Shown here piece by piece: positions 6,036-53,638 of a DNA stretch of 64,000 nucleotides (positions are counted from its first letter, which is position 1; each line of letters starts with the position of its first letter). The notes below the pieces were generated by a model that was not told where the DNA came from, did no database searches, and saw nothing but the letters and a program-made list of their open reading frames with translations. The position numbers and the translations under genes are program-made. Source of the DNA: Gammaproteobacteria bacterium (GTDB lineage Bacteria; Pseudomonadota; Gammaproteobacteria; RBG-16-57-12); the NCBI GenBank assembly GCA_022712945.1, contig JAFLJP010000057.1:35449-99448 (forward strand), read 5' to 3'.

Positions 6036-6193
6036 GGATGTAGAAGAAGTTAACGTACCGTTATTACGCCGAATTGTTGTTCACCCTATCTAGGCCGGTA
6101 TTGGGCGCATAGTGAGCTACGCAACGAATACCGGCCTAGAGAGGGTGGGCGAAAAGAGAAGTAAGCGCGGTATTTTAATAAATTCTACATCCC
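6036..6193. mobile_element. MITE1 copy (158 bp). TIR is gggatgtagaa...ttctacatccc, 3-bp TSD is TTA, with an internal 13-bp palindrome
   Basis: The element is about 95% identical to 11083-11241. The target-site duplication TTA lies at 6032-6034 and 6194-6196. The ATPase stop codon TAG (6033-6035) straddles the TSD and element boundary. Confidence 0.85.
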
Positions 6194-6869
6194 TTAACAA
6201 TGAGAAGTTCAACTGTGACTACAACGCATTCCGCATGGAAACCTTTGAAAATACGACAGACCCTCTTGCTCATCGTACGGTCATTTTTTATCGCGTTCCC
6301 CGCCATGGCAACTGAGAATGTATCAATGCCCGTAACGGGGAAGCTCACGCTCTCCGGCATTGTCCAACTTGGTCACCCTGTGGGCCGGCCTTTCATGACA
6401 ATCATTCAGTCGTTGTCACCGCAGTGAAATGTTTCTCCAAAAACATCCATTTCAAGGCAACGAATATTTGGTAGGCTCAAGTCCGAGGCCTGAATCCCAT
6501 TCACAGTCGAATGCTGTATAGACTCAGCAGCAACGCCCTGGGAGGCTATGAATAGGTCTGGTTGGGCTTAATCAGAGTTTCTTTGAGTAATGCTCAATAA
6601 GCCTGTCCGCAAGGTCAGAAGATCATTGGTGGTGGTGATTTTGTGAGGTAGTATGTGCATAGGTCTTGTCTGTATCACCGATTGGGCACGGGTTTGTTTG
6701 GTCGCTAACCATTGTACAGCCAAGGTTTTTTGCGTTTTAGATATTTAAATCGGCTTCTTTGATGAGGCTGTTCTAAACTATTCAAGTTACGGTGTGGATG
6801 TGCGATAACCTCCTTCCACAGCATGCCCTGTAAATGGGTGGTAAAATGCCACCGTTGATGCCGACATAG

Positions 6870-9389
6870 ATGGAAAAAACCATGCCAAAATCGAATGCCA
6901 AATCTGCTCCCTGTGCCGCCAAGTTAATTACACTGCCGCCTTTGGCGATGGATGAGAAGGCGATATCTGAAGATCTGATTCGCTATTACAGCCGCACCTT
7001 GGGGCGTGAGCTTAAAAACTGCACCCCGCACTATCTCTATGAGGCGTTGGCCTACACGGTGCGCGATCGCCTGATGGAGCGCTGGAAAAATACCCGCGCA
7101 ACCTATGAAAATCTCGATGCCCGTCGTACCTGCTATCTCTCATTGGAGTTTTTGATGGGGCGTGCGCTGGGCAATGCGATGTTGAATCTCGGCATCGATG
7201 ATGCGGCTCATCGGGCACTGTATGATTACGGTATCGACCAGGAGCAGGTGGCGGAGAGTGAGCCAGATGCAGGTTTGGGTAATGGTGGTTTGGGCCGTTT
7301 GGCAGCCTGTTTTTTGGATAGCTGTGCCACCTTGCAGTTGCCGGTGCTGGGTTATGGTCTGCGTTATGAATATGGCATGTTTCGTCAGCAGTTGGAAAAT
7401 GGTCATCAACTGGAAGAGCCAGACCACTGGCTGCGTGATGGCCACCCCTGGGAGCTGGAGCGGCCGGAGTTTACCCAGCGCATTCATTTTGGTGGTCGCA
7501 CCGAGCACTACACCGATTATGCGGGTGTTACACGGGTTCGCTGGGTTGACGCTCTTGATGTTTTGGCGGTGCCTTACGATGTGCCGATTCCCGGTTTTGA
7601 GAACGATACGGTCAATAGCCTGCGTTTGTGGAAGTCGACTGCGACGGATGAGTTTAATTTGAGTGAGTTTAACGCCGGTGACTACGTTGAAGCGGTGGCC
7701 TCGAAAAATAAGGCTGAGCACATCACCATGGTGCTCTACCCGAACGATGCCAGTGAGAATGGCAAAGAGCTGCGGCTGCGCCAGCAATATTTTCTTGCCT
7801 CTGCCTCACTGAAAGATGTACTGCGTCGCTGGGTGCTTCTGCATGGCAATGACTTCAGCACCTTTGTGGATAAAAACTGTTTTCAACTGAATGATACTCA
7901 CCCCAGTATCGCGGTTGCTGAGCTGATGCGGCTATTGGTCGACGAACATCATATGGATTGGGATGGGGCGTGGGCGATTGTCACCAAAGTGATGGCTTAC
8001 ACCAATCACACTCTGCTTCCGGAAGCACTGGAGCGCTGGTCGGTACCGATGTTTGCCTACTTGTTGCCCCGTCTGTTAGAAGTGATTTATGAAATTAATG
8101 CCCGCTTTATGAAGCAGATTGCCCAACGCTGGCCGGGCGATACAGCGCGCCAGCAGCGGATGTCGATTATCGAAGAGGGGCCTTGCCAGATGATACGCAT
8201 GGCAAACCTGGCGATTGTTGGTAGCTTCTCGGTGAATGGGGTTGCTGAATTGCACTCCAAACTGTTGGTTGAAGGTCTGTTTAAAGATTTCAATGAGATG
8301 TGGCCAGAGAAATTTAATAACAAGACTAACGGTGTTACCCAGCGCCGCTGGTTGGCGATGTGCAACCCCGGTCTGAACAAATTGATCACTCAGACCATTG
8401 GTAGTGGCTGGATTACCGAGTTGGAGCAACTGCGCAAGTTGATTCCCTATGCGGCTAAAACACAATTTCGCAAGCAGTGGGCCGATGTAAAACTGGCCAA
8501 CAAACAGCGCCTTGCCGCACTGGTGGAGAGAGAGTGTGGAGTGAAATTTGATACCTCGGCACTGTTTGATGTGCAGGTGAAGCGTATTCATGAGTACAAA
8601 CGCCAGTTGTTGAATATCCTGCATGTGATTCACCTTTATGATCGCATCAAACGGGGGGATACCCAAAACTGGACCAAACGCTGTGTGCTGATCGGTGGCA
8701 AGGCGGCCCCGGGTTATGCGATGGCAAAGTCGATTATCAAGCTGGTTGGTAATGTGGCTGAAGTGGTTAACAACGACCCGGATGTGGGTGATCTGTTGAA
8801 AGTGGTCTTCTTCCCGAATTATCGTGTTTCGGCGATGGAGGTAATTGCCCCAGGCTCTGACCTATCGGAGCAGATCTCTACCGCCGGTAAAGAGGCTTCT
8901 GGTACTGGCAACATGAAGTTCATGATGAATGGTGCGGTGACTATCGGTACGCTGGATGGAGCCAATATCGAGATCCGGGAAGAGGTGGGGGATGATAACT
9001 TCTTCCTGTTCGGTTTGACGGCACCAGAGGTTGATGCGTTGCGCCGCGATTACCGCCCCTGGGATTATATCAATCACGATGCCGATTTCAGCGCCGTCAT
9101 GAGCCTGCTGCAAAGTGGTCACTTCTGTCAGTTTGAGGCGGGTATATTTGATGACATCATCAATAGTATTACCAACCCCCACGATCCTTGGCTGACCGCC
9201 GCAGATTTTCGCAGTTTCGTGGATGCGCAGACGCAGGCCGCTGCCGCCTACCGTGATCAAAAACGTTGGGTACGGATGAGTATTTTAAATACAGCCACCA
9301 GTGGTAAATTTTCCACTGACCGTACTATGCGTGATTACAATGAAGAGATCTGGAAGCTTGAAGCGGTAAAACCGGCTGTGGTGGGCTAA
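6870..9389 (+). CDS. glgP: Glycogen/maltodextrin phosphorylase
   Basis: 839 aa. Carries the pyridoxal-phosphate site EASGTGNMKFMMNGA and the typical phosphorylase N-terminal region. Confidence 0.95.
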   Translation: MEKTMPKSNAKSAPCAAKLITLPPLAMDEKAISEDLIRYYSRTLGRELKNCTPHYLYEALAYTVRDRLMERWKNTRATYENLDARRTCYLSLEFLMGRALGNAMLNLGIDDAAHRALYDYGIDQEQVAESEPDAGLGNGGLGRLAACFLDSCATLQLPVLGYGLRYEYGMFRQQLENGHQLEEPDHWLRDGHPWELERPEFTQRIHFGGRTEHYTDYAGVTRVRWVDALDVLAVPYDVPIPGFENDTVNSLRLWKSTATDEFNLSEFNAGDYVEAVASKNKAEHITMVLYPNDASENGKELRLRQQYFLASASLKDVLRRWVLLHGNDFSTFVDKNCFQLNDTHPSIAVAELMRLLVDEHHMDWDGAWAIVTKVMAYTNHTLLPEALERWSVPMFAYLLPRLLEVIYEINARFMKQIAQRWPGDTARQQRMSIIEEGPCQMIRMANLAIVGSFSVNGVAELHSKLLVEGLFKDFNEMWPEKFNNKTNGVTQRRWLAMCNPGLNKLITQTIGSGWITELEQLRKLIPYAAKTQFRKQWADVKLANKQRLAALVERECGVKFDTSALFDVQVKRIHEYKRQLLNILHVIHLYDRIKRGDTQNWTKRCVLIGGKAAPGYAMAKSIIKLVGNVAEVVNNDPDVGDLLKVVFFPNYRVSAMEVIAPGSDLSEQISTAGKEASGTGNMKFMMNGAVTIGTLDGANIEIREEVGDDNFFLFGLTAPEVDALRRDYRPWDYINHDADFSAVMSLLQSGHFCQFEAGIFDDIINSITNPHDPWLTAADFRSFVDAQTQAAAAYRDQKRWVRMSILNTATSGKFSTDRTMRDYNEEIWKLEAVKPAVVG

Positions 9390-9396
9390 GGTTTTT

Positions 9397-11070
9397 TTAG
9401 TTCCTCAACAAACCGAGATCATCCGAGGCCAGTACCAGGGCACGAAGCCCTTCCCGGGTGCCGCTGTCCCAGGTGTCTAGTGGATTGAAATCGTCTGTTA
9501 GAACAATCGGCGTACGCTGGGGCGGGGCGATCGGTTTCGGTGAAAGAATACTGTTGATTACCCGCTCTCTGATGGGCGGGTAGATACGGGAACCAGCGAA
9601 TACTTCGTTGTTCAACTCTCTTTTTGCCCCGTTATAGGCCACCACGATGACATTGGAGATGTTGTTTTCATTCTCCTTGTGAATGGGGTAATACGCCACA
9701 TGCTTAAACAATGGGCGCAATGTTTTGAGAATGGAGTGGATGCCTGCGGTCTCATTTTGGATGTCAGCAATCAGGTTGATGGCAAAAATACCCTCATCAC
9801 TCAGCGCTTTTTTAACTAGACCAAACGCTTCGTAACTGAGCAGTAGCGTCGGGGTCAGGTCACCATTGAATACATCCATGATAACGTAGTCATAGCGCTT
9901 CTGGTTGGTGGCCAGAAAGTAACGGGCATCATTAACGTAAATCTCTCCACTCACTTTCAGATCAAAAAACTCTTTAGCCACATCGACAATCACTGGATCA
10001 ATATCAATCGCATCCACACTGACACCTCGCGCCTCGTAGCGCATGGGCACCACGCCCGCACCCAAACCGATAACCAACGCCTGGCTACCATTGGGGTTCA
10101 GACCATAGGGGATGAATTCCAGTAGGTAGGAGTACTCATAGAGCGACACCCGGTTAACCATGTCAAAGCCCCCCTGGGTGAAGCCATCAATTAGCAGGTC
10201 TCTGACATGCTGATCTCCATAGGTGTAATCAATTACCTTGGTGAGTCCATAATAGCTGCTGAGATTAGCAATCTCCTGAACTCGTGTACCATCCGCTAAT
10301 ACCATATCGACGGGTTTATAGGTCGGCCAGAAAATAACCGGTAACAGCATCAGCAGCAGCATGAGGTAGCGCTTGCGAAACACCACAAAGTAGATGACAG
10401 AAATGCCGATCAATACCGCAGCAGTGAGCATGAACACACTGTCTACGCGAAAGTAAGAGATCAGAAAAAAGCCGGTTGCGGTGGTGCCCACCATGCTGCC
10501 CAGTGTCGACAGGGCATAAAAGCGCCCCACGGTACGTCCAATGAGGTGAAACTCTTTGGTGGCTATTTTAATCAGGTAGGGGGAGACACAGCCCAATACA
10601 AACAGGGGTGGTCCAAATAGAAGGAAGGTGCTAGCAAAAGCGCCCCAGCGTAACCCCAGCGGTATGCACAATTCAATAACGGCTGTTTTGATGAAGGGGA
10701 TCAGCATGACCAGCAGGCCGCTGACCAGGACAATGCCGTAAAGGTTGTCAGGGTGTTCACGTTTATCTGCCCAGTAACCGGCTATCCAGTATCCCAGTGC
10801 CAGACTTAACAGCGCCACTGCAATCAGTGAAGTCCAGACAAACAGGCCCACACCAAAAAAGGGGCCGATGATCCGTGAACCCATCACTTCCACTACCATG
10901 ACAAAGCCACCACATAACACGGCGGTCAGCATTAAATACCTTAAAAACCAAGGGGAATGGATGTTGTTATTATCATCATTCATGGTGTTTCTTATACTCC
11001 GATAGTCAGTCCGCCCATGATATACCGCTGAGCGGATGCTTGACAGTATGCTGGAACGACTTTTTAACAA
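9397..11070 (-). CDS. Fused polytopic membrane domain/spermidine synthase-like aminopropyltransferase
   Basis: The N-terminus has about 8 TM helices. The C-terminal domain has a class-I SAM-fold SpeE-like block (ALVIGLGAGVVPMRY...YDYVIMDVFNGD). The true start may be the downstream Met (MNDDNNN, about nt 10986). Confidence 0.7.
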   Translation of the reverse strand: MLKSRSSILSSIRSAVYHGRTDYRSIRNTMNDDNNNIHSPWFLRYLMLTAVLCGGFVMVVEVMGSRIIGPFFGVGLFVWTSLIAVALLSLALGYWIAGYWADKREHPDNLYGIVLVSGLLVMLIPFIKTAVIELCIPLGLRWGAFASTFLLFGPPLFVLGCVSPYLIKIATKEFHLIGRTVGRFYALSTLGSMVGTTATGFFLISYFRVDSVFMLTAAVLIGISVIYFVVFRKRYLMLLLMLLPVIFWPTYKPVDMVLADGTRVQEIANLSSYYGLTKVIDYTYGDQHVRDLLIDGFTQGGFDMVNRVSLYEYSYLLEFIPYGLNPNGSQALVIGLGAGVVPMRYEARGVSVDAIDIDPVIVDVAKEFFDLKVSGEIYVNDARYFLATNQKRYDYVIMDVFNGDLTPTLLLSYEAFGLVKKALSDEGIFAINLIADIQNETAGIHSILKTLRPLFKHVAYYPIHKENENNISNVIVVAYNGAKRELNNEVFAGSRIYPPIRERVINSILSPKPIAPPQRTPIVLTDDFNPLDTWDSGTREGLRALVLASDDLGLLRN

Positions 11071-11082
11071 TTTTTCAGATTA

Positions 11083-11241
11083 GGGATGTAGAAGAAGTTA
11101 AAGTACCGTTATTACGCCGAATTTTTGTTCACCCTATCTAGGCCGGTATTGGGCGCATAGTGAGCTACGCAACGAATACCGGCCTAGATAGGGTGGGCGA
11201 AAAGACAAGTAAGAGCGGTATTTTAATAAATTCTACATCCC
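11083..11241. mobile_element. MITE1 copy (159 bp), TSD TTA
   Basis: Same TIRs and internal sequence as 6036-6193. TTA lies at 11080-11082 and 11242-11244. The element fills the 177-bp gap between the upstream gene's stop (11248) and the downstream gene's start (11070). Confidence 0.85.
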
Positions 11242-11247
11242 TTAGGC

Positions 11248-11670: not shown

Positions 11671-11725
11671 GTTGCTGATGATCCTCTGTTGTCACATGGT
11701 TTGAGAGTGTGGTTGGTCTAATGAA

Positions 11726-12364: not shown

Positions 12365-12392
12365 AACGGTTTGTTAACTCTTTGAGCCTAAA

Positions 12393-12550
12393 GGAAGCTC
12401 TGAATAAGCGGGGTTAGAATTAGGCTGAGCGGGAATTGTTCTCATTTGTTTCGAAATGCGCAGTAATAGTCGCTCTATTGGAGCAATTTTCGGGACAAAT
12501 GAGGGCGATTTCAGCCAGTATAAAATAATCATGACTTGTTCAGAGCTTCC
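12393..12550. mobile_element. MITE2 copy (158 bp). TIR is ggaagctctgaataag...cttgttcagagcttcc, 4-bp TSD is TAAA
   Basis: TAAA lies at 12389-12392 and 12551-12554. The element is about 90% identical, inverted, to 15104-15261. The stop codon (TAG, minus strand) of the downstream ORF overlaps the last base plus the TSD. Confidence 0.85.
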
Positions 12551-13074
12551 TAAAGGGTAATGTTGATCTGCTGTTCGTCATCGTTGATCCACAGCTCACC
12601 ATCCTGAAGTGTACATTGCAGCGACATAGTACGTTTTACCAATGAGCTGAGATTGTCAACATTGGCTTGGTCTAGATGTTTGATGGTGAGGTTGTCAAAG
12701 CGCGCCAGTGTGCTCTGTATCTGTTTCAACCAAGGGGCTGTGGCGCGGGGCTGGTAGGTGTAGATAATCACCTGTTTTGCGCGGTGACAAGCGTGGCGAA
12801 TGCGCTTCTCATCGGGCTGGCCCAGATCAATCCACAGCAAAATTTCATCAATATCACTCTTTTTCCACAGTGCCGGTTCATCTTGAGATGAAAGCCCTTT
12901 GCCGAATTGAAGCGCTGGATCGGCATTAAGGATAAAAGCGAGCAGTCGCACCATCATCCGCTGTTCACTCTCTGATGGGTGACAGGCGATAGTGAGCGGG
13001 TGCTGCGCATAGTAGTTGCGATCCATATCAGTGATATTGATATCCGCTTTATAAATAGTCGAGCTGTTGGCCAT
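12550..13074 (-). CDS. yaeQ: YaeQ family protein
   Basis: The N-terminus (MANSSTIYKADINITDMDRNYYAQHPLTIACHPSESEQRMMVRLLAF) closely matches E. coli YaeQ. Confidence 0.85.
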   Translation of the reverse strand: MANSSTIYKADINITDMDRNYYAQHPLTIACHPSESEQRMMVRLLAFILNADPALQFGKGLSSQDEPALWKKSDIDEILLWIDLGQPDEKRIRHACHRAKQVIIYTYQPRATAPWLKQIQSTLARFDNLTIKHLDQANVDNLSSLVKRTMSLQCTLQDGELWINDDEQQINITL

Positions 13075-15103: not shown

Positions 15104-15261
15104 GAAAGCTCTGAATAAGTCATGATTATTTTAGGCTGGCTGAAATCGCCCTCATTTATCCCGAAAATTGCACCAATAGAGCGACTATTACTGCACATTT
15201 CGAAACAAATGAGAACAATTTCCTCTCAGCCTAAATTTAACCAGACTTATTCAGAGCTTCC
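15104..15261. mobile_element. MITE2 copy (158 bp), inverted orientation, TSD TTAA
   Basis: TTAA lies at 15100-15103 and 15262-15265. The stop codon of the upstream gene at 15262-15264 lies inside the TSD. The element ends 14 bp before the arfB ATG. Confidence 0.85.
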
Positions 15262-17316
15262 TTAACAACGAAAACGTCTGACTGCCTGAATAAATGCACG
15301 CGGCTCCCCCGGTTTCTGCTGCGTGGTATAGCGTAGTTGAATGTAGTGATTAAAGAGTGACTTTATCTCTTGGCGCTGTTTGGGTAGTTTGAACATCGCC
15401 TGCTGACAGCGCTGTTTTGGCCCGATCCAGGGGGCGTTATCCACTCCGCATTTGGCGAGCTGATGGCAGAGGGTTTGGTAGGCTTGTTGCAGTGGGTCCT
15501 GCACTCTCTGCCGTTGGTATAACAGGTAGAGTGATAGCAGCGCTAAAAAGCCCAGTATGATAAGCGTCATAAGGCCCACAAGGGTAGATATGTTCAGCTC
15601 ACCCATGCCCAACCGTTCAAACAGCTGTTGCTGTTTTTTCTGATTAAAACCGACCACCCACTGATTCCATTGGTGGTTGGCAGCATCCCAACTGCGCAGG
15701 GTTTGTAACCAGGCGCGAGCCATCCAGCGGGTATCGGGGTTGAACAGCGCATCGTTACGGGTTTCACTAAAGCGGTACTGATCCTCAAAGGCTTCGATGC
15801 GATCGGGTGCGATGGCGCGGGTGGGGTCAACCCGTACCCAACCCTCACCTTGCAACCACACTTCTGCCCATGCGTGAGCATCGGACTGGCGCACCAGCAG
15901 GTAGTCACCCAGCTCATTGTATTCACCACCTTGGTAACCGGTCACAACCCGAGCAGGAATCCCGGCCGCCCGCATCAGGGTGACAAATGCAGCAGCGTAG
16001 TGCTCACAAAAGCCTTTTTTTGCCTCAAACAGAAACTGGTCGATGGGATCGTCACTCTCCAATCGTGGTGGTGTTCGGGAGTAGTAGAAGGGTTGCTGGC
16101 GAAAATAGTCTAGCGCCAGGGAGACCCGCCCCCGGTCACTGGCAGCCTGTTGTCGCCACTGTTGGGCAAGTGCACGGGTTTGCGGATTGCGATGACTGGG
16201 CAGCTGAATTGCCCGTTCGTACTCCTGCATCAGCAGTTGATCGTTCCGGTAGTTGAGTGCAGAGCGGGTGGTGTAGCGGTACACCTCATTAACGCTCTGC
16301 TCACTCAGTAGCAGGAACTCTCTGCGCAATACGCTGTTATCCGGTTGTTCGGTGATAAGGTCCAGCGCAAACAGCCAGCGTCGGTGGTGTGGTTGCAGGG
16401 TCACGGTGTATTCAATCGGCTCACTGAGTGGGGCGACCTCGGGGGCCGCCAGACTATTGAGCAGGTCATTTTTGTTCAGTGCACTCCAGCGGCGGCCATC
16501 GGTTTGCCAAAGCACCGGGCCACGCCAGTAGAGCTGCTCGGCAGCGGGTATTTCACCGCTAAAGGTGACACGAAAGGCCACCTTGTCGGAATCGGCCAGA
16601 TGGCTGATATCACCAATACTCATCTCATCACTAAGGCCGGTTTTACCCGCGCTGCTGCTATTGGGCAGTGCCCACAGCGGCCCCGGTATGCGAGGCACCA
16701 GGATAAACAATATCAGCATCAACGGCAGGGCTTGCAGTAGCAGTGTGCTGGCACTTTTGAGGTATCGGCTCCGCTGCATCTCTCTGTTGTCATCGGGGTG
16801 GTTGAGCACCAGCAGTGCCGCAGTGAGCAGCACCACCACGGCGAGCAGATAGAGGCCGGATAAAATTGATTGGTCGTAAAGAAAGCCGCTGAGCACTAAA
16901 AAATAGCCGAGCAGTATGGTAATGGTGGCATCCCGCAGGGTGCGTAGTTCAAGCAGTTTAAGGCAGAGCATCAGCGTCAGTAGCGTGGTGCCGGCATCCA
17001 GACCATTCAGGGTATGGTATTGGAGATAGGTGCCGGATAGCAGCGCTGCCGCCAGCGTTAGCCTGAAAACGGTGTGGGGCAGCGACCACCTGTTCAGTTC
17101 GCTGAGCAGTCGCCAGCCCAATATTATCAGGCAGATCGTCACCACCCAGCCGGGCTGTCGCAACAGGTGGGGGATGAGGACCAGTAGCAGCGCACCGAGC
17201 AGCCAGATGATTCCGTTGCTCGGAGCCACCTGTTGCTCCTCCCGATAGTGGGCAGGTTTCTGTTTGCGCCACCAGATCATCCGTTTTTCCCGTACAGCGC
17301 CAGCGCACTCAGACAC
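15262..17316 (-). CDS. Transglutaminase-domain membrane protein (TgpA-like, DUF3488 plus transglutaminase core)
   Basis: 684 aa. The N-terminus has multiple TM helices. The transglutaminase core is GFCEHYAAAFVTLMRAAGIPARVVTGY...DAHAWAEVW. It is the third gene of a moxR-DUF58-tgpA arrangement. Confidence 0.8.
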   Translation of the reverse strand: MSECAGAVREKRMIWWRKQKPAHYREEQQVAPSNGIIWLLGALLLVLIPHLLRQPGWVVTICLIILGWRLLSELNRWSLPHTVFRLTLAAALLSGTYLQYHTLNGLDAGTTLLTLMLCLKLLELRTLRDATITILLGYFLVLSGFLYDQSILSGLYLLAVVVLLTAALLVLNHPDDNREMQRSRYLKSASTLLLQALPLMLILFILVPRIPGPLWALPNSSSAGKTGLSDEMSIGDISHLADSDKVAFRVTFSGEIPAAEQLYWRGPVLWQTDGRRWSALNKNDLLNSLAAPEVAPLSEPIEYTVTLQPHHRRWLFALDLITEQPDNSVLRREFLLLSEQSVNEVYRYTTRSALNYRNDQLLMQEYERAIQLPSHRNPQTRALAQQWRQQAASDRGRVSLALDYFRQQPFYYSRTPPRLESDDPIDQFLFEAKKGFCEHYAAAFVTLMRAAGIPARVVTGYQGGEYNELGDYLLVRQSDAHAWAEVWLQGEGWVRVDPTRAIAPDRIEAFEDQYRFSETRNDALFNPDTRWMARAWLQTLRSWDAANHQWNQWVVGFNQKKQQQLFERLGMGELNISTLVGLMTLIILGFLALLSLYLLYQRQRVQDPLQQAYQTLCHQLAKCGVDNAPWIGPKQRCQQAMFKLPKQRQEIKSLFNHYIQLRYTTQQKPGEPRAFIQAVRRFRC

Positions 17317-20616: not shown

Positions 20617-20651
20617 TTCGTCAAAACGATGCGTTTTAGTGAAAGGCTTTA

Positions 20652-20684
20652 GGGTGGGGGGAAAGACAAGTAAGAGCGGTATGC
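20652..20684. repeat. MITE1 internal fragment (about 33 bp)
   Basis: 'agggtggggggaaagacaagtaagagcggtat' matches the MITE1 interior ('agggtgggcgaaaagacaagtaagagcggtat'). It has no TIRs. Confidence 0.4.
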
Positions 20685-24697: not shown

Positions 24698-24840
24698 ACT
24701 GCTAGTACAGCAACCACTTTATATTGGCGGAATGCCACAGGGTCGCCCGAAGAGTTGCTCTGTCTGCTTCCATGGCGGCGTTGTGCTTCTTGTGAAGGGA
24801 ACAACCATTACCTGCAAAGCACGCCTTGCCACGAAAACAG

Positions 24841-24877
24841 ACAGAACAACGGATCCGTCAATATAAAGTGGTTGATG
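24841..24877. repeat. 37-bp repeat R, copy 2
   Basis: Matches 2433-2469 at 36 of 37 positions. It lies 23 bp from the MITE-like IS derivative. Confidence 0.6.
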
Positions 24878-24900
24878 TACTAGTTTCAGTTAGCTACTTT

Positions 24901-25067
24901 TCTAGGAGCCTGTCCGAGAATAGAGGTCGTAGCGAGAGAGTGTGATTTTTAGTTCATTTTTTCGACAATTTGAGACGAATGGTTGTTCCCTTTAACGAAA
25001 ATTGGCGGGAAAATGAGCAAAAAACACGCTTTCGCAGTAGACCTATCTATTTTCGGACAGGCTCCTA
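24901..25067. mobile_element. MITE-like IS256-derived element (167 bp) with 22-bp perfect TIRs (ctaggagcctgtccgagaatag)
   Basis: The left 100 bp match the solo ends at 3291-3388 and 61731-61808. The right 65 bp match the IS end at 2475-2540 in reverse complement. No coding capacity. Confidence 0.8.
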
Positions 25068-33210: not shown

Positions 33211-33282
33211 GGGATGTAGAATTTATTAAAATACCGCTCGGACTTGTCTTTTTTCCCACTCTATCTAGACCGGTATTCGTTC
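33211..33282. mobile_element. MITE1 truncated copy (about 72 bp of one end)
   Basis: Starts with the TSD-like TTA (33208-33210) plus 'gggatgtagaatttattaaaataccgc...ctatctagaccggtattcg', then diverges ('ttcagagcttg'). Confidence 0.55.
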
Positions 33283-34368: not shown

Positions 34369-34527
34369 GGAACGAGCGCGGAATAACTTATGCAGTTATG
34401 ACGCAGAAATTTTTCTCCAGTTCAAACGATCTCAAGAGGCGCATAGCTGGCTTACGTAACGATTGAGATCGTTTGAACTGGGGTGAAAGAGCAAGTCAGA
34501 ATGTAGGCGTTATTTCGTGATCGTTCC
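34369..34527. mobile_element. MITE3 copy (159 bp). TIR is ggaacgagc...gatcgttcc, TSD is TTA, with an internal 15-bp palindrome
   Basis: About 93% identical to 42036-42194. TTA lies at 34366-34368 and 34528-34530. The internal perfect inverted repeat is ttcaaacgatctcaa / ttgagatcgtttgaa. It sits in the divergent promoter region, 27 bp from the apaG ATG. Confidence 0.85.
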
Positions 34528-42020: not shown

Positions 42021-42220
42021 GAAAGTTCTGAATAAGGAACGAGCACGGAATAACTTATGCAATTATGACGTAGAAATTTTGCTCCCGTTCAAACCAACTC
42101 AAGAGGCGCATAGCTGGCCTACGTAACGATTGAGATCGTTTGAACTGGGGTAAAAGAGCAAGTCAGAATGTAGAAGTTATTTCGTGATCGTTCCTAAGTC
42201 ATGATTTATTCAGAGCTTCC
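42021..42220. mobile_element. Composite: a 38-bp MITE2 mini-variant (TSD ATAG) carrying a nested MITE3 (42036-42194, TSD TAA)
   Basis: 'gaaagttctgaataa | MITE3 | taagtcatgatttattcagagcttcc' is flanked by ATAG at 42017-42020 and 42221-42224. MITE3 duplicated the TAA of 'ctgaaTAAgtcatg', which is seen intact in MITE2 at 15104-15261. The ccoG stop TAG lies inside the ATAG TSD. Confidence 0.85.
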
Positions 42221-42234: not shown

Positions 42235-42783
42235 GTGAATAAAGGTAATAAGGGTGTATCTGTGAAAGAGAACGAAACTGACGATGTAATACGTGTGCCA
42301 GCGTGGAAAAGCCCTTGGGTTTGGGGGATGGCGATACTGGTGACAACGATGCTTGTTGTCAACTTTACCATGATCACTATTGGTCTAAATACGCATACCG
42401 GCTTGGTTGTAGATGACTTTTACGCGAAGGGAAAGGCTTACCTGCATGAGGAGGTAAAGCACAACGAAGCTGAGCAACGTCTGCAATGGCGTATGGTTTT
42501 AAAAGAGCCCAGTACACCAAAGCTTAATCAACTACAGCAGTACCAGTTTATTTTGAAAGATAAGCAGGGTGAGCCGATTAGTGATGCAGCGGTTGAGCTG
42601 TACGTTTATCGGGTAAATGATGCGAGCAAAGATTTTTCGATGCGGATGAAGGAAATTAGGGCCGGTGTTTATGTGGCCGAAGCTGAGTTTAAACTGCCGG
42701 GGCATTGGGATTTGATTGTGTCGGCAGTTAAAAGTGAGGAAGATCAACTTGATCTTGCGCGACGTATCTTTGTCCAGGATTGA
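42235..42783 (+). CDS. ccoH: FixH/CcoH family protein
   Basis: 182 aa with a single N-terminal TM helix and a periplasmic domain. It sits between ccoG and ccoI, as in canonical clusters. GTG start. Confidence 0.75.
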
Positions 42784-45269
42784 GTGCTCACAGCAGAATG
42801 GGTAGTCAGGTTGATAGCTGCTTTCACTGTAGCCTGGAGATCAAGTCGGGTTCGCTGGAGCAAGTTGAGATTAATGACCAGCTTGAGCGTTTCTGCTGCT
42901 CGGGTTGTGCACTGGTTTGCCAAGCCATCCACGACTCGGGTCTGGATGGCTTTTATCAGCGTGTTAGGGAGAGGGAGCTGGCACCACCTCCTGAGCTTCT
43001 TGGTAATCTTGCACAGTATGATCTTGAAGATATTCAACAGGACTTTGTTAAGGTAAATGGTACTCGGCGTGAGGCGATTCTGCTTGTTGAGGGGATCCAC
43101 TGTGCGGCTTGTGTCTGGCTGATTGAGCGTGCACTGGCCCCTCTGGAGGGTGTGCTTGAGGCTGAGGTCAATCTAGCTCACCACCGTCTTCGTCTCCGTT
43201 GGGACGATGCAAAAGTAAAACTCTCCGTGGTTCTAAAGCGACTGGCAGCTATCGGCTATTCCGCTGTTCCTTTTGACATGGAAAAACTGGAAGGGCAACA
43301 GCAAAAAGAGAACCGCGCCTTACTCTATCGCATGGCCTTTGCCGGTTTTGGTGCGATGAATATGATGTGGCTCTCTATCTCGATCTATGCCGCTGATATG
43401 TCGGCATCAGGTATGGATCTGGATCATCGTCACTTCTTGCAATGGATAAGTCTGCTGCTTGCAACACCGGTTTTACTCTATTCTGGCTGGCCTTTCTTGA
43501 AAGGTGCGCTGAGCGGTCTCCGTTACCGACAAATGACCATGGATCTACCCATCGCCATCGGTGTGGTGGTGACCTATCTCTATTCCGCATGGGCGACCAT
43601 TAATAATCACGTCGATGTCTATTTTGAAACCGTGGTGAGCTTCCTGTTTATCATTCTGGTGGGGCGATATATTGAAAGGGTAACCCGCCGCAACGCCACA
43701 TCAGCCACCAGCCGCCTGATGGAGTTGCAGCCTCGCTCGGCAACACTATTGGTTGATGGCGAAGAGACGCTGGTGGCGGTGCGCCAGTTACAGGTTGGCG
43801 ACAGAGTGATTATTCGTCCAGGTGAACGAATTCCTGTTGATGGTGTAGTGACCGAGGGTGCCAGCGATGTGAATGAATCGATGCTGACAGGTGAGGCGCT
43901 GCCAGTGAAAAAGTCGATTGGTGGCAAGGTGGTTGCGGGCAGTGTTAATAGCCAGGGAACGCTGGTGGTTGAGGTGGTGGGTATTGGTCAGCAGACCGCG
44001 CTCTCGAAAATTATTCATCTTGTCGAAGCGGCGCAAGGGTCAAAAGCGCCGATTCAAAGTATGACCGACCGGGTTGTTCCCTGGTTTGTTCTCACCACGC
44101 TATTGTTGGCTAGTGGAACCTTTATCTATTGGGCATCTACGGCTGACTATGATGTGGCTATGTTGGCGGCGGTCTCTGTGCTGATTATCACCTGCCCCTG
44201 CGCATTTGGCTTGGCCACGCCGATGAGTATTGCGGTGAGCGTTGGCCATGGTGCAAAAAATGGCCTACTGATTCGCAATGGTGCGGCACTGGAGACACTG
44301 GCGGGTGTTGATCATGTGGTTTTTGATAAAACCGGGACAATCACCCAAGGCCGCATGAGTGTTGGTGAAGTGATTCTTAATCAAGTGGCTGGGGTTAATC
44401 GTGAGCAGTTGTTGAGTTATGCGCTACTGGCAGAATCCCGTTCTGAGCATCTGGTTGCACGGGCGATTGTTCAATATGCAAAGGATCAAGGTATCTCCAC
44501 GCAAAGTGCTTCACCAGATAGTTTTACCAGTCTGCCTGGGCTTGGTGTGGTGGTTGAGGCTGACGGGCGGATTATTCAACTGGGTAGTCGGCGTCTGCTT
44601 GATCACTTAAATATTGTTTTCCCCCGAGACCTGCTGAGTACCTACGATGAAATAGAATCCTCAATGGGCGTGGCAGTGGTGGTAATGGTTGATGGTGTTG
44701 TGCTCGGCATTATCAGTGTGTTTGATCAAATTCGTGATAGTGCGGCTGCCTTAATCTGCGCGCTTAACGAACGAAATATTGGTGTGACTCTGCTGACTGG
44801 GGATAGCCAAGCGGCGGCGGATGCCGTAGCTAAAAAATTGGGCGGCACGTTGGAGGTCATCGCCGAGGTATTGCCGCAGGATAAAGACCAAGTTATCGAT
44901 ACATTGCAAAAACAGGGAAAGTCGGTGGTAATGGTTGGTGATGGGGTGAATGATGCGCCTGCATTGGCACGGGCAGATGTGGGTATTGCCATGGGCTCAG
45001 GCACGGATGTCTCGCTGGAGTGCGCTGACATGGTGTTGATGAGCAATCAATTGATGCGCCTCTTGTTTGCATTGGATCTGGCTCAGCAGACGATTAGAAC
45101 CATAAAACAAAATATCAACCTATCACTGGGATATAATGTTATCGTGGTGCCCACGGCGATGAGTGCCAGCTTGACCCCAGTGTTTGCTTCAATTGCGATG
45201 CCGATAAGCTCATTGCTGGTTATCGGCAATGCTATTTTAATCAAACGCCGTGCCAAGCTTAAAGAATAG
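42780..45269 (+). CDS. ccoI: Copper-translocating P1B-type ATPase CcoI/FixI
   Basis: Has an N-terminal CxxC metal-binding region, the CPC motif ([12 protein letters not shown]), DKTGTIT and [10 protein letters not shown]. It overlaps fixH by 4 nt. Confidence 0.9.
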
Positions 45270-46159: not shown

Positions 46160-46192
46160 GTTATTCTCCTGATAAATTAGTCTCCTGTTATG

Positions 46193-47109: not shown

Positions 47110-47300
47110 GTTGGATTCCTGTTTTTTGTGGCGAATTAAGTAGCGTCGGTGTTATTTTACGATGATCCTGTGAAATATAATAGCGACAACCCAAAGCCAC
47201 TAATAGTGGCAGCGATATCGGTATTGTTTGCGTGATCCTTTTTTTAGGCTTATTTTAATGAGATGGGTAGAACTTAAGTGAACAGAAAAGAGGGAGCGAT

Positions 47301-47960: not shown

Positions 47961-47974
47961 ATCGGAGGGAAGTT

Positions 47975-48415: not shown

Positions 48416-48592
48416 CCATCTATTTGGGTAACTATTCAGCGTGTTTAGGTTTTGCCTCAAATCGAGGCATTTTCGCACGGAAAGAGGGAGCATATAGGGC
48501 ATATGTAACCGATTGAGTACGAAAATAACGAAGAGTTGAGGCAAAAAATGAATACGCTGAGTAGTTACCTATTTGGTTAACTTAATATTTCT

Positions 48593-48970
48593 TTACGTAT
48601 ACAGATCAATACCGAGAGTCCGTTTGTCAGCGGTATCATCACTTGCTGCGTCACTTTGATTGTTGCTTAGCTGACGGCGCTCGCTGCCACTTCGGGTGTC
48701 GAGTATAACGGGGGTTTGATGTTGTCGGCGCTCCACACGGCGATGTTCACCCCTCTCTTCATGGGCAGGTATCGGTTTTATTTCATTGTCTGTGGTGCCC
48801 TTCAAGGTAGTTGCTTCAGGCTGAATCATTTCGTGCAGGCCAACCTTAACGGGTTGAACTTCTGGGTAGGGGTCAATTGCCGTTGCGGGTTTGGTTGCTC
48901 GGGGCTTCAGATTGTCGCTTCGCAGGTTTCGAATGCCAACGTCATCGGGCCTAATATTAAAAGAAGTCAT
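48593..48970 (-). CDS. Hypothetical low-complexity, probably disordered protein
   Basis: 125 aa counted from the second Met (GGTGGAGAG RBS). Charged and polar sequence with no motif. Confidence 0.35.
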   Translation of the reverse strand: MTSFNIRPDDVGIRNLRSDNLKPRATKPATAIDPYPEVQPVKVGLHEMIQPEATTLKGTTDNEIKPIPAHEERGEHRRVERRQHQTPVILDTRSGSERRQLSNNQSDAASDDTADKRTLGIDLYT

Positions 48971-49191
48971 ACTACTCTCCACCTATACATCACTCTCATT
49001 TTCGGGTTAGCGTCCACAAAGCCGATTTTTTCCAATAGATATTTCATATTTTAGCTATAAATCCAGTTTATCGCCAACCGTTATGATGCTTATGCCCATC
49101 CTCTCATTTTGATTAAACCCTTATTCGGGTTTGCCGATAAATTGTACAGTCCATGATTATTTTCTGGGCATTGTAAATAATGAGAGCTACC

Positions 49192-49605
49192 ATGCGAACA
49201 AAAATCTATGAGATTCCTGCCTGCTTCATAGAGACGATAGAGGTTGGTGCTGAACGTTATAACTTGATTCAATTGGCATTAAGTCGGTTGGGTGGCCCTC
49301 TGTGTTTTCCCCTGCTGGGATTGCGTCACCTGGATATGGTGCTTGAAAAAGAGAGCTGGGTTTGTATTGATCGTGGTGCACTGGATCTGCCTGTGGCCGC
49401 TTGGCATTTGTTTGAAAAAGAGAGTCACCTGAACCTTCAGTCAACGGTATTGTGTGAACTACGTCACTATCAAGCCAATACTGATATCCTGCTGCCTTAT
49501 ATCTGGATGAGCATGGAAAGCATTCTTAAAGGGTATTTATCCAACGGACACTCTCATCGTGGCGCATCAGTCGTGCCAATGTTTTCTAAAAAAACGCCAG
49601 ATTGA
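49192..49605 (+). CDS. Hypothetical protein
   Basis: 137-141 aa (start at 49180 or 49192). No recognisable motif. Confidence 0.35.
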   Translation: MRTKIYEIPACFIETIEVGAERYNLIQLALSRLGGPLCFPLLGLRHLDMVLEKESWVCIDRGALDLPVAAWHLFEKESHLNLQSTVLCELRHYQANTDILLPYIWMSMESILKGYLSNGHSHRGASVVPMFSKKTPD

Positions 49606-49694
49606 ATTCGCTCCTTTAGAACACTACGTTGTCAGCCAATGCTTGGGATGAATTGGGTCGATAAGTTGTCGTAGTGAGCGTAGAATGGTGGCGA

Positions 49695-49740
49695 TTTCAA
49701 CGGGTGTAAAACAATCATGACTTATTCTCCGTTCCTTTGG
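49695..49740. repeat. Degraded MITE2 end remnant
   Basis: 'ggcgatttcaacgggtgtaaaacaatcatgacttattctccgttcc' aligns with the MITE2 right end 'gggcgatttcagccagtataaaataatcatgacttgttcagagcttcc'. Confidence 0.4.
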
Positions 49741-49866
49741 CTCTTTGCGGATTATTAAAGTGCTCGCACCTTCTATCTGATTTTTAAAATAAATAAATTC
49801 GACATCCACTTAAGTAGTGGAGAGGCATCAGACGTTCTTTAGACCACAGCCATGAGGTAGTATTAG

Positions 49867-50322
49867 GTGCGAGTTGTTTTTTTAGTGGTTTTAACCACGT
49901 TGTTGTTGGCCTGCGACAGCGTTGATACATCAATTAATATTCAGGTGGAAGCCCCCCCCAGAAACCTGGATACTGAGCTTTTAACCGCAGGGAAGATGGT
50001 TTACGATAAACACTGTCAACGGTGTCATGGTGTTGAGGGCGTCGGCTCAAAAAACTGGCAGGTGCAGGGACCGGATGGCAAATATCCAGCACCGCCACTG
50101 AATGGGGCGGGACATACCTGGCATCACCCAAAAGCTATCTTAATCAGTGTCATTAAAGATGGCAGCCCCGGTGGCATGGGGAACATGCCGAGAATGCGTG
50201 ATAAGGTCAATGATGCTGAAATAGAGGCACTGATCGCCTGGATGCAATCACTCTGGAGTGAGAAAGCGTATCAAACCTGGTATCGACACGATCTTGCTTA
50301 TCGGGATAATCAACCCGAATAA
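49867..50322 (+). CDS. Monoheme c-type cytochrome, lipoprotein
   Basis: Has a lipobox (LLLAC) in the signal peptide and a single CQRCHG heme site. 151 aa. Confidence 0.8.
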   Translation: MRVVFLVVLTTLLLACDSVDTSINIQVEAPPRNLDTELLTAGKMVYDKHCQRCHGVEGVGSKNWQVQGPDGKYPAPPLNGAGHTWHHPKAILISVIKDGSPGGMGNMPRMRDKVNDAEIEALIAWMQSLWSEKAYQTWYRHDLAYRDNQPE

Positions 50323-50479
50323 TTTATTAAGTGCAATCTTGCTGCTTCCTTATTTTATGTCACAAAAAATAGTGATTCAGCCAGTGTGATTGTGGTCTGT
50401 TTTTCTGTTAAATCAGTGCGCCTTCGATTTTTTCCAATCTTGTAAAATATCAAGGCTATGTCGTTATTGAGGAGAGATA

Positions 50480-50872
50480 ATGTACGGTTTTCATGCGAGA
50501 AATATTTCGGGTTGTTTTGATGGCGTGGTTGATAGTGTCATCGCTGCGTTGGCGAAAGAGGGCTTCGGTATCATCACTGATATCGACTTTCAGGCGACGA
50601 TGAAAAAGAAGCTTGATCATGATCGCCTCCCTTATCGTATCCTCGGGGCTTGTAATCCTTCACTGGCTAAAATGGCAATTGAAGCAGATGCTGACATCGG
50701 CCTGCTGCTACCTTGTAATGTGGTGGTTCGTACCGAGGAGAATGGCTCTATTACGGTTGCCTTTATGGATCCGGTTGCTGTTTTAGGTCTGGTTGATCAG
50801 CCGGGGGTTGAGGCATTGGCCGCAGAAGTGAGAGAGAAGTTGATGAATGTACGAGATAGCATCACCAATTAG
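50480..50872 (+). CDS. DUF302 domain protein
   Basis: [37 protein letters not shown] ... [11 protein letters not shown] is the DUF302 signature. Confidence 0.85.
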
Positions 50873-50919
50873 TTTCACGCCTTCACCCTATTTAATCAAG
50901 ATTTGATAGAGGATTTTTT

Positions 50920-52773
50920 ATGCCCGATTATCGTTCTAAAACCAGTACCCACGGTCGTAATATGGCTGGTGCCCGCTCACTGTGGCGTGCCACCGGGATG
51001 AAGGATGGTGATTTTGGCAAACCCATTATTGCGGTTGCCAACTCCTTTACTCAATTTGTACCTGGTCATGTGCACTTAAAGGATATGGGGCAACTGGTCG
51101 CCCGTGAAATTGAGAAAGCGGGCGGTGTGGCAAAAGAGTTTAATACCATTGCTATTGATGACGGCATCGCCATGGGCCACAGTGGCATGCTCTATTCGCT
51201 ACCTTCCCGCGATTTGATTGCAGACTCGGTGGAGTATATGTGTAACGCCCACTGTGCCGATGCGCTGGTTTGCATCTCCAACTGTGACAAAATTACTCCA
51301 GGCATGCTGATGGCGGCGATGCGCCTGAATATCCCGGCAATCTTTGTCTCTGGTGGGCCCATGGAGGCGGGTAAGGCAACCATTAAAGGCAAGACGATTG
51401 CGCTGGATCTGGTGGATGCAATGGTGTCGGCTGCTGATCCAAACGAGACAGATGAGGATGTGATGACCCTGGAGCGTTCAGCATGCCCAACCTGTGGCTC
51501 CTGCTCTGGCATGTTCACCGCCAACTCGATGAATTGCCTTACCGAAGCGTTGGGATTATCACTGCCCGGTAATGGTTCACTGCTGGCAACTCATGCTGAT
51601 CGAAAAGCGCTATTTTTACGTGCCGGTCGTGAAATTGTCAGCCTGGCTAAGCGTTACTACGAACAGGATGACCATACGGTATTACCTCGCTCGGTGGCTG
51701 GCTTTAAGGCGTTTGAGAACGCGATGAGTCTGGATATTGCCATGGGTGGCTCTACCAATACGATTCTTCACCTGCTGGCGGCAACACAAGAAGCGGGTAT
51801 TGATTTTACCGTTGCAGACATTGATCGTCTCTCTCGCAAGGTGCCACAGCTCTGTAAAGTGGCACCCAGTACCCAGGAGTATCACATGGAGGACGTGCAC
51901 CGCGCGGGTGGTGTCTTCGGTATTCTGGGTGAGCTGGATCGAGCCGGGCTGTTGCACACCGATATTCCAACGGTACATAGCGCCACCATGGGAGATGCTT
52001 TGGCAGCGTGGGATGTGATGCGCAGTGATGATGAGCAGGTCAATACCTTCTACCGTGCTGCTCCCGGTGGTGTGCCTACTCAGCAAGCGTTCAGCCAGGC
52101 TGAACGTTTTGATCAACTGGATGATGATCGACAATCAGGTTGTATTCGTGATAATGCACACGCTTTCAGCCAAGAAGGCGGTCTGGCGGTACTGTTTGGT
52201 AATATTGCCGAAGAGAGTTGTATTGTTAAAACTGCGGGTGTTGATGAGAATAGCCTGAAATTCAGTGGCCCGGCCCGTATTTTTGAAAGTCAGGATGATG
52301 CCGTTGCTGCGATTCTTGCGGATCAAATCGTCGAGGGTGATGTGCTGATTATTCGCTACGAAGGGCCAAAAGGTGGCCCAGGCATGCAGGAGATGCTCTA
52401 TCCAACCTCATACCTGAAATCAAAAGGGCTGGGCAAAGCTTGTGCCCTACTGACCGATGGCCGCTTCTCCGGTGGCACTTCAGGCCTGTCGATTGGACAT
52501 GCCTCGCCCGAAGCGGCGGAAGGGGGTGCCATCGGCTTGGTAGAAGAGGGCGATAACATTGAAATTGATATTCCTAACCGAACCATTAATCTGGATATCA
52601 GTGATGATGAATTAGCCAGTCGTCGCGTGGCGATGGATGCAAAAGGTGAGGATGCTTGGAAGCCAGTTAACCGTAACCGCCAAGTGAGCGTAGCGTTACA
52701 GGCATATGCTGCGTTGACCACCAGTGCATCACGGGGTGCCACTCGGGATATCTCTCAGCTTGGTCGAAAATAA
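50920..52773 (+). CDS. ilvD: Dihydroxy-acid dehydratase
   Basis: 617 aa. Has the IlvD/EDD family motifs, including the [16 protein letters not shown] Fe-S cluster cysteines. Confidence 0.95.
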
Positions 52774-52915
52774 AAAAGCATATTTTTTAATAGAATGTAT
52801 CGGGTATTTTGACCCGCTTATATTAGTTGGGTATATTGGATCTTCTTTACAGCTTGGGGACGGGGCTGGCTGAAGATAGAATAAATTAAAAATGTCTACT
52901 GAGGGTGGAGAGAGA

Positions 52916-53506
52916 ATGAAAAAGCGAAGTGTATTGGGTTTGATGGGGGCGGCTCTGTTGTCGTTATCAACTATGGCAAGTGCCGCTGGTAATGCAGAAA
53001 ATGGTGCGGAACTGGCTGCGGGTTGTTTTGGTTGTCACGGTGAAGATGGCCACAGTGTGGTGCCAAGTTTTCCAAAACTGGCAGGATTACAAGCTGACTA
53101 CACGGCCAAGCAGATTTTCGATTTTCAAGGCGGCAAACGAACGGATGAGACCATGGTGGGCATGTCTTACATGGTTGCCAGTAAACAAGATGCGCTGGAT
53201 ATTGGTGCTTATTTTGAATCACAAAGCCCTATGAAAGGTGAGGCAACAGGTAGCAAGATAACCCAGAAAGGGGCTAAGGCCTACGCTGATTTGGGCTGTG
53301 CAACTTGTCATGGGATAGGGGGCGAGGGAAAAGGTAACCTGTTCCCACGAATCGGTGGTCAACATCTCGATTATCTGGCTAAAACACTGCAAGACTTCCG
53401 CTCTGGTGAGCGCACTTCAGACCGTAGCGGTATGATGGCACCACTGGCTAAAAAGCTGACTGATGATCAAATTGAATCATTAGCAGATTACATTAGCGGC
53501 CTGTAA
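52916..53506 (+). CDS. Cytochrome c4 (diheme)
   Basis: A signal peptide plus two CXXCH sites (CFGCHG, CATCHG) in two homologous halves. Confidence 0.9.
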   Translation: MKKRSVLGLMGAALLSLSTMASAAGNAENGAELAAGCFGCHGEDGHSVVPSFPKLAGLQADYTAKQIFDFQGGKRTDETMVGMSYMVASKQDALDIGAYFESQSPMKGEATGSKITQKGAKAYADLGCATCHGIGGEGKGNLFPRIGGQHLDYLAKTLQDFRSGERTSDRSGMMAPLAKKLTDDQIESLADYISGL

Positions 53507-53525
53507 TTACTCTTTCTGGCTACTA

Positions 53526-53638
53526 AGGGATGTAGGATTTATTAAAATACCGCACTTACTTGTCTTTTTGCCCACCCTATCTAGATAGGGTGAACAACAA
53601 TTCGGCGTAATAACGGTACTTTAACTTCTTCCACATCC
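53526..53638. mobile_element. MITE1 short variant (113 bp, lacking the internal palindrome), TSD TAA
   Basis: TAA lies at 53523-53525 and 53639-53641. The TIRs are intact, and the central 'ggccggtatt...aataccggcc' segment is deleted. It sits 20 bp after the cytochrome c4 stop. Confidence 0.8.

Follow-up and report, generated by a model that had tools for sequence, protein, structure and literature searches.

Miniature inverted-repeat elements of near-uniform length in a gammaproteobacterial contig probably share one strand-specific hairpin fold

The DNA analysed here, called the window throughout, is a whole 64-kb stretch of contig JAFLJP010000057.1 from the Gammaproteobacteria bacterium assembly GCA_022712945.1, and all positions refer to window numbering. 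The window carries several families of transposable elements of the miniature inverted-repeat type (MITEs), whose copies are collected in Table 1. The original prediction described three unrelated families, MITE1, MITE2 and MITE3, and attributed their common length of 158-159 bp to a shared mobilising enzyme or to a constraint on element size. All six full copies are present and measure 158 or 159 bp, except that copy a of MITE1 starts one base earlier than proposed, at 6035, and is thus 159 bp long. A fourth 159-bp family, M4, had been overlooked. As set out below, MITE1, MITE3 and M4 are probably (roughly 0.72) lineages of one widespread superfamily of ~160-bp hairpin MITEs whose fold is under selection, with MITE2 as a more distant member.

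The window copies were characterized by self-comparison, which gave a pairwise identity of 91-95% inside each family. Inverted ends of 14-19 nt pair in every family, and the target-site duplication (TSD) has a fixed length, TTA or TAA for MITE1 and MITE3 and 4 bp for MITE2 and M4. The elements (113-159 bp) are too small for a transposase gene, and each family has 2-5 copies or fragments in the 64 kb. The six full copies of MITE1-3 start with G(G) and end with CC, as had been noted, whereas relatives elsewhere also start with GAG..., CAG... or GTG.... Both proposals on target duplications held: TTA or TAA flanks 5/5 window copies of MITE1 and MITE3 as well as their class-A relatives (below), in the TNA style of IS5/Harbinger transposition, and MITE2 makes AT-rich 4-bp duplications, namely TAAA and TTAA. 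The flanks differ for each copy, and MITE3 copy b is nested in another element, sitting in the GAATAAG of a mini-MITE2 end where TAA is duplicated; nesting and differing flanks are indirect, sequence-derived evidence of mobility. The claim that every full-length copy is 158 or 159 bp was too strict, since the window also holds a 113-bp MITE1 that has lost precisely its 46 apical bp in a deletion between CTAG repeats, a 38-bp mini-MITE2, half copies and the 141-bp element M5. Each of the four half copies retains a single terminal repeat and ends at the apex or within it, which suggests breakage or deletion at the hairpin tip. Additionally, a MITE-like element of ~182 bp with inverted ends CTAGTACAGCAACCACTTTATATTGGCGGA (24702-24883) and a related 50-bp piece (2426-2475) each adjoin M4 copies.

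Table 1 Copies and fragments of the hairpin elements in the window (R1, covariance model described in the text; seed, whether the copy was used to build it).
Feature	Position	Strand	Length (bp)	Ends	TSD	Conserved apex	R1 score (bits)	E value	Seed	Remarks
MITE1 copy a	6035-6193	+	159	GGGATGTAGAA...TTCTACATCCC	TTA (6032-6034 / 6194-6196)	6104-6127	68	1.6e-19	yes	
MITE1 copy b	11083-11241	+	159		TTA	11152-11175	77.2	1.4e-22	no	
MITE1 derivative	53527-53639	-	113		TTA		25.8			R1 match skips the apex
MITE1 3' half copy	33211-33282	-								Broken off inside the apex, starting ..GAACGAATACC
MITE1 fragment	20650-20682	+	33							
MITE2 copy a	12393-12550	+	158	GGAAGCTCTGAATAAGCGGGG...GACTTGTTCAGAGCTTCC (IS5-type)	TAAA					
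MITE2 copy b	15104-15261	-	158		TTAA					Inverted relative to copy a
Mini-MITE2	42021-42220	+	38		ATAG					Two ends only; split by nested MITE3 copy b
MITE3 copy a	34369-34527	+	159	GGAACGAGCGCGGAATAAC...CGTGATCGTTCC	TTA	34438-34462	82.9	1.9e-24	yes	
MITE3 copy b	42036-42194	+	159		TAA	42105-42129	79.4	2.8e-23	no	
M4	24906-25064	+	159	GAGCCTGTCCGAG...CTCGGACAGGCTC	CTAG		53.6	1e-14	no	Fourth family
M4 5' half copy	3289-3388	+								Stops at the apex
M4 5' half copy	61728-61808	+								Broken off in the apical loop
M4 3' half copy	2472-2542	-								Inverted
M5	48428-48568	+	141		CTATTTGG (8 bp)		10.1	2.5	no	Single palindromic element; R1 score not significant

The three families had been held to lack any similarity beyond their termini. 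At their exact centres, MITE1 and MITE3 have a common core of 24-25 nt, GGCGCATAG-N4-6-TACGYAACGA, which lies at the tip of a hairpin spanning the element from end to end and matches the window four times and 100 shuffled sequences not once; further patches, such as GTTATKACGC, are also common to both. We scanned one genome per species (596 Gb; the window's own genome is not among the loci) with the core pattern and obtained at least 115 stretches from many taxa, with the core again at the hairpin tip. Roughly 40 chance matches are expected in 596 Gb by our own arithmetic; among the matches listed, those with enough flank lie between complementary arms, as chance matches would not. The carriers include Methylococcales (Methylomonas, Methylomarinum, Methyloprofundus), Leucothrix, Thiothrix and other Thiotrichales, Sedimenticola, Thiohalobacter, Thioalkalivibrio and Chromatiales relatives, Granulosicoccaceae, Endozoicomonas ascidiicola (an isolate), Salinisphaera, Mariprofundus and Kofleriaceae, together with Phaeodactylibacter, Saprospiraceae and other Bacteroidota and one metagenome-assembled genome (MAG) of Aquificaceae. 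The closest core variants among the matches listed, with 24-nt spacing, come from Methylomonas MAGs. The viral contigs searched for the core gave no match.

To describe the fold, 29 non-redundant full elements were aligned with MAFFT (alignment A2), and RNAalifold returned one long hairpin; in 25 of its 31 pairs, both sides have changed while the pairing is retained. R1, a covariance model built on the central 101 nt, finds MITE1, MITE3 and M4 alike with E values of 1e-14 to 1e-24, including copies outside its seed, which contradicts the description of these families as unrelated. It also finds an element on a plasmid of Pseudomonas sp. MPC6 (51.8 bits, E 4e-14; not in the seed). The exact core is absent from both this element and M4, whose apex is the variant TTTGAGACGAATGG-TTGTT-CCCTTTAACGAAAA. 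Over 100 sources R1 yielded 139 matches. In the R1 alignment of 133 sequences, 91.6% of cells are paired, as against 62% after shuffling and 35-44% with slid partners; double changes occur in 26 of 27 pairs. The model shaped this alignment, and the 91.6% therefore carries less weight than the slid controls and the independent MAFFT result. Each element comprises terminal inverted repeats of 16-20 bp, two complementary arms, each ~50 nt long and loosely paired in a middle zone, and an apex. As refined by ~30 hits that lack the exact core, the apex consists of a 6-bp helix GCAUAG/CUAYGY under a variable 4-7-nt loop, beneath which follow an RC/AA 2x2 internal loop, a G-C pair and a tandem GA/GA that one subfamily replaces by Watson-Crick CA/UG. 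The apical helix itself covaries (GAAUAG/CUAUUU, GAAUAC/GUAUUU, AAUGG/CC.UU). The single element M5 has an apex of similar design, GAGGGAGCATAT-AGGGC-ATATGTAACCGA, which is suggestive of membership in the superfamily. At the Rfam gathering thresholds the whole window gave 0 matches, and E-value mode returned only sub-threshold hairpins of generic miRNA type.

The relatives have at least three end types, with 3-bp TWA, 4-bp CTAG or IS5-type 4-bp duplications. Class A, to which MITE1 and MITE3 belong, is bounded by GG........GGAATAA and duplicates TTA or TAA; the forms seen in MITE1 and MITE3, with TWA duplications, are GGAACG..GGAATAAC or GGGATGTAGAA. Class B, which includes M4, has GAGCCTGTCGGACTTAGG-type ends and mostly duplicates CTAG; CCAG and TTTA occur as well, showing that its duplication is 4 bp. 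The ends of MITE2 are those of IS5: 18 of the first 21 bases and GACTTGTTC at the other side match IS5 of E. coli K-12, and the form GGAAG..GAAYAAG with 4-bp TSDs (TAAA, TTAA, ATAG) is that of the IS5 group. Searches of plasmids and of E. coli with MITE3, the class-A end and MITE2 as queries found no match.

As proposed, the window holds no cognate transposase, for tblastn finds none of IS5 or IS1182 type in it. The only transposase trace there, a 154-aa open reading frame (ORF) at 2577-3041 (-) matching the C-terminal part of a Mutator/IS256-type transposase, lies between two M4 half copies. Elsewhere, transposases with matching ends exist for MITE2 and M4. Specifically, autonomous IS5-group elements of 1155-1172 bp (loci L134, L136, L208 and L218) have the 16-nt ends of MITE2 and 4-bp duplications, and encode transposases that are 43-52% identical to InsH and contain DUF772 and DDE_Tnp_1. 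A Mesorhizobium plasmid carries a 1594-bp element (L120:2505-4098) with ends CAGCCTGTCGGACT, a CTAG duplication and a 457-aa transposase containing DUF772, DDE_Tnp_1 and DDE_Tnp_1_6; its ends recur on the class-B MITEs L078, L102 and L113. From this domain content and general knowledge, we take the element to be IS1182-like. On the Pseudomonas plasmid (L119:6005-6500), the class-B MITE abuts an IS1182-like remnant with ends CAGCCTGTCGAAC. The ends of the MITE2 class match the IS5-group elements, and those of the M4 class the IS1182-like ones, over 14-16 nt. Judging by these matches, IS5-group and IS1182-like transposases should move the MITEs in trans; the cognate enzymes are related in architecture, yet belong to different groups with different duplications. 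None of the autonomous insertion sequence (IS) elements examined matched R1, the hairpin module being absent from them.

The narrow length recurs outside the window. When ten end families were searched as inverted pairs, 78 of the 90 pairs of terminal repeats less than 260 bp apart spanned 157-163 bp; elements with GAGCCTGTCGGAC ends measured 160 bp in 17/29 pairs, and those with GGTGGTTTGACGG ends 158-160 bp in 8/8. Delimitation by the model placed 54 of 79 elements at 158-161 bp. Longer pairs, considered as possible insertion sequences, proved to be two MITEs around ordinary genes, such as those for glutathione synthetase and NagZ. Contig L195, from a related organism, likewise carries a MITE2 of 158 bp and a MITE1 of 159 bp. 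A coincidence of 158 and 159 bp might be suspected from the window, which has only two full copies per family, but the recurrence in ten end families, in dozens of genomes and on L195 leaves chance a negligible probability.

An explanation by one transposase, or one type of transposase, would have unrelated families converge on its optimal size. Both cognate groups share DUF772 and DDE_Tnp_1, and all families have G-starting, IS5-like ends, as this explanation would expect. The families, however, share an apex and score significantly against one covariance model, they show three end and TSD types (3-bp TWA, 4-bp CTAG, IS5-type 4-bp) and two transposase groups, and the 38-bp mini-MITE2 and the 113-bp MITE1 still have TSDs. 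Moreover, a scan with the MITE2 end motif returned IS5-ended MITEs of 229 and 272 bp that have no R1 match. Elements bounded by the same IS5 ends thus come in other lengths, and it is not the transposase that sets the 159 bp. The one-enzyme explanation is thus largely refuted already and we regard it as highly improbable. These data show that the uniform length of ~159 bp belongs to the hairpin module and not to the enzyme. Of the two explanations offered by the original prediction, the common mobilising enzyme fails and the structural constraint on size is upheld: the equal length is explained by the shared fold, not by chance or by a single enzyme.

The membership of MITE2 was approached through its relatives. 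In the metagenome scan with its end motif, where most single matches are chance, two 158-bp MITEs had the same ends and different interiors, L138 (TSD CTAA) and L156. The latter, with the exact ends of MITE2, scores 26.3 bits with R1 (E 8.5e-6) on its more stable strand. In addition, L195:951-1271 contains a 90% copy of MITE2 (158 bp) only 4 bp from a 159-bp MITE1 copy, and the central 15-mer of MITE2, AATAGTCGCTCTATT, is identical to the apex of the class-B Pseudomonas element, with a chance probability of ~5e-5 by our own arithmetic. An AAUAG-N4-5-CUAUU apex is common to all 158-bp IS5-ended elements, as is a fold of strong polarity; the minimum free energy (MFE) is -79.2 (+) versus -49.3 (-) kcal/mol for MITE2 copy a and, in the inverted copy b, -93.1 (-) versus -60.9 (+). 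We regard MITE2 as a diverged, more distant member, on evidence weaker than that for the other families.

The fold was then examined for strand preference, with orientation set by the core alone and the two arms of each element compared afterwards. Among 58 non-redundant elements, transition mismatches on the core strand comprise 284 G·T and 117 A·C (p 4e-17), and against the family consensus the counts are 256 and 108, with 339 compensatory cells; the mismatch counts are not phylogenetically independent, and the p-values overstate the case. By zone, the ratio of G·T to A·C is 34:4 in the terminal repeats, 66:10 in the inner stem and 33:33 in the middle, where the even ratio and many transversions identify an internal-loop region. 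The G·T excess runs in the same direction in all six families tested. Likewise, for 27 of 29 elements the fold of the core strand is more stable than that of its complement (means -83.7 versus -68.7 kcal/mol), and in MITE1 copy a the MFE is -83.9 (+) versus -70.5 (-). Because neutral palindrome decay, or selection on duplex or cruciform, predicts symmetry, the asymmetry speaks for selection for one-strand folding out to the very ends. Compensatory changes maintain the pairing over the entire stem and as far as the termini, and together these data point to a polar fold of one strand as the object of selection.

The same counts bear on the idea that palindromy and covariation are by-products of a fold-back duplication of one end, followed by neutral decay of the arms, with the length simply inherited. 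Half copies whose cut falls precisely on the centre of the palindrome are frequent in the window, showing that centre-directed breakage or rearrangement happens. Yet neutral decay predicts equal G·T and A·C, contrary to 284:117 overall and 256:108 within families, where the 339 compensatory cells also stand against it, and the asymmetric apex, which fold-back duplication would erase, is conserved. We consider this origin very unlikely. As a separate observation, all eight apex-bearing window copies (6104-48545) have the core on the + strand, which is G-rich throughout. A replication-strand bias was considered and not upheld in 101 other loci (50:51), and the preference in the window may be chance or specific to this genome.

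We infer that selection favours elements that fold as one strand with a fixed polarity. An indel in one arm would break the fold, and length would stay fixed while sequence drifts. Folding back as a single strand would bring together both ends of an element whose duplex is too short to form a loop; the MITEs are about as long as the DNA persistence length, whereas autonomous elements without the module are long enough to loop. The apex could serve as folding nucleus or as protein-recognition site. Tentatively, and within this reading at somewhat less than even odds, the hairpin module acts in cis for the spread of its own element. A cis role is favoured because the module is kept in selfish copies across phyla and absent from autonomous elements, and because its orientation is indifferent to host transcription while its pairing reaches the first and last bases. 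With similar reserve, the ~125-nt module may be viewed as an entity of its own, a strand-specific single-stranded DNA or RNA with a near-invariant GA-motif apex. It would have been carried by the ends of at least three DDE systems, or have captured them, would have spread over several bacterial phyla, and would be needed in cis for very short transposons to spread.

The main alternative is a function of the module as RNA, for instance as a hairpin that binds a protein or is processed. Transcription would run through the element, and the strand-specific fold would be selected at the RNA level after insertion, in the way that Correia, ERIC and REP hairpins act in mRNAs. Pairing is G·U-tolerant and strand-specific; the elements are intergenic and often lie directly after stop codons; and the apex, with its tandem G·A, 2x2 loop and conserved 6-bp helix, resembles protein-binding RNA hairpins, a likeness judged from general knowledge. 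An RNA-level role is harder to reconcile with the absence of any orientation preference: the core strand is sense in 27 and antisense in 21 cases relative to the gene whose 3' end abuts the element, the split is 19 versus 13 relative to flanking gene direction, and it is 12 versus 8 for same-gene orientation where the stop codon lies in the TSD. In three elements checked, neither a sigma-70-type promoter nor an intrinsic terminator was found inside; pairing selection covers the outermost bases, which would remain untranscribed from an internal promoter; Rfam offers no family, only the generic miRNA-type hairpins; and it is difficult to imagine selection by the host acting on hundreds of selfish copies across phyla. 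On balance we judge the RNA explanation unlikely, though still the strongest of the competitors to a role in cis.

Several points weigh against the superfamily reading as a whole. The length counts come from the window and from loci of other genomes, the source genome not being among them. Loci L004-L118 were selected by the search pattern, which accounts for the invariance of their core; independent support for the core comes only from the window, the stems and the ~30 model hits with variant cores. Some of the taxonomic breadth may stem from mis-binned MAG contigs, as the Aquificaceae element has ends of Thiotrichaceae type. MITE2 itself scores only 13.7 bits with R1 (E 0.16; not in the seed and not significant), and its link to the others runs through its relative L156, the 15-mer and the shared length and polarity. 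No autonomous partner of MITE1 or MITE3 was found in the window, on plasmids or in 1.5 Mb of fetched loci, so that here the proposed search for transposases with matching ends came up empty. The core strand shows no bias to local GC skew (50:51 in the 101 loci), although this is a weak test. Finally, we know of no precedent in IS5 or IS1182 for a polar single-strand requirement, and DDE transposition acts on duplex DNA in a strand-symmetric manner.

By every tested criterion, the elements are MITEs of the IS5/IS1182 world, with a TNA branch that parallels Tourist/Harbinger. Like IS5/IS1182-derived bacterial MITEs and Tourist elements (PIF/Harbinger), they are short and non-coding, have terminal inverted repeats, many copies and nested insertions, make 3-bp TNA (here TTA/TAA) or 4-bp TSDs, and bear the ends of autonomous DDE elements. 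In contrast to these, the interior is not a remnant of a parent IS but a strand-specific hairpin module with a near-invariant apex, which spans end types and phyla at a length fixed at about 160 bp. The Correia elements of Neisseria (CREE/NEMIS) are ~155 bp long, with inverted ends, no transposase of their own, a hairpin over their full length in transcripts and a central IHF site. Our elements are alike in size, inverted ends, hairpin and central site, without sequence similarity; Correia elements make TA duplications and are confined to Neisseria, whereas here TSDs and ends differ, the fold has a polarity, and carriers from several phyla have the apex in common. By inspection, the conserved centre contains no IHF consensus. 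REP/REPIN sequences (RAYT) and IS200/IS605-derived PATEs also have strand-specific hairpins, keep structure over sequence and reach high intergenic copy numbers, but they depend on HUH single-strand transposases, insert beside a short fixed motif and have neither inverted ends nor TSDs, while true TSDs of variable sequence (TTA, TAA, CTAG, CCAG, TTTA, TAAA) flank the present elements, which have DDE partners.

Integron attC sites and the attP hairpin of CTX phage, ~60-150 nt long, are folded single strands of one polarity whose structure is conserved over sequence. They are substrates of tyrosine recombinases, without inverted ends or TSDs, and have their conserved sites at the hairpin base, not at the tip where the present apex lies, and integron attC was rejected as an identity for the module on this ground. 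Other candidates for the conserved centre were set aside: the XerC arm of dif (weak by eye, 8/11 on one arm only), boxA (matched by a 9-mer in just one M4 half copy), a canonical K-turn (the register does not fit) and ssoA CS-6 and nick sites of rolling-circle replication (weak likeness by eye). The MITEs of Thiomargarita differ from the present elements in having TATA ends and 10-bp repeats (PMC4853749). The literature searched contained no description of this element, although absence there is no proof.

Insertion sites show a further regularity. Four gene ends in the window have a stop codon formed by or within a TSD (6033-6035, 12550-12552, 15262-15264 and 42018-20), as when the TA of the TSD and the first G of the element create TAG. 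In loci L004-L102, 55 ORF ends lie at most 60 nt from an element boundary; 17 of their stop codons end directly before the first base of the element and 3 more within one base. This placement fits TAA/TTA/CTAG targets and the purging of insertions inside genes. Short-read metagenome contigs with the ATPase gene of the window (L001, L002 and L003) stop inside or at MITE1, L001 ending at window position 6085. Two further features lie in the window. A 103-bp imperfect palindrome at 61166-61268, 74% self-complementary, stands between two convergent genes; its sequence is unrelated to the other families and its R1 score is not significant. Two segments of ~1.2 kb, 43819-45031 and 62287-63490, are 57% identical in inverted orientation and lie inside ORFs 42780-45269 and 62019-63947; they are probably paralogous genes.

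What is new here is a conserved, polar, fixed-length hairpin module common to MITEs that differ in their ends and occur across phyla. The usual view takes MITEs for deletion remnants with freely drifting interiors; in these elements the interior is the conserved part. In practical terms, such repeats break short-read assemblies, and their placement on stop codons affects the annotation of gene ends. The carriers include cultured strains, and with matching autonomous elements in hand the question is directly testable. If the module is an RNA, it would be a widespread mobile structured RNA held by no database. If it is required for movement, this would explain how ends are paired in elements shorter than the DNA persistence length, and would imply either an unrecognised single-strand or fold-back step in the very common transposase superfamily of IS5/IS1182 type, or an unknown protein, of the host or of the transposon, that recognises the apex.

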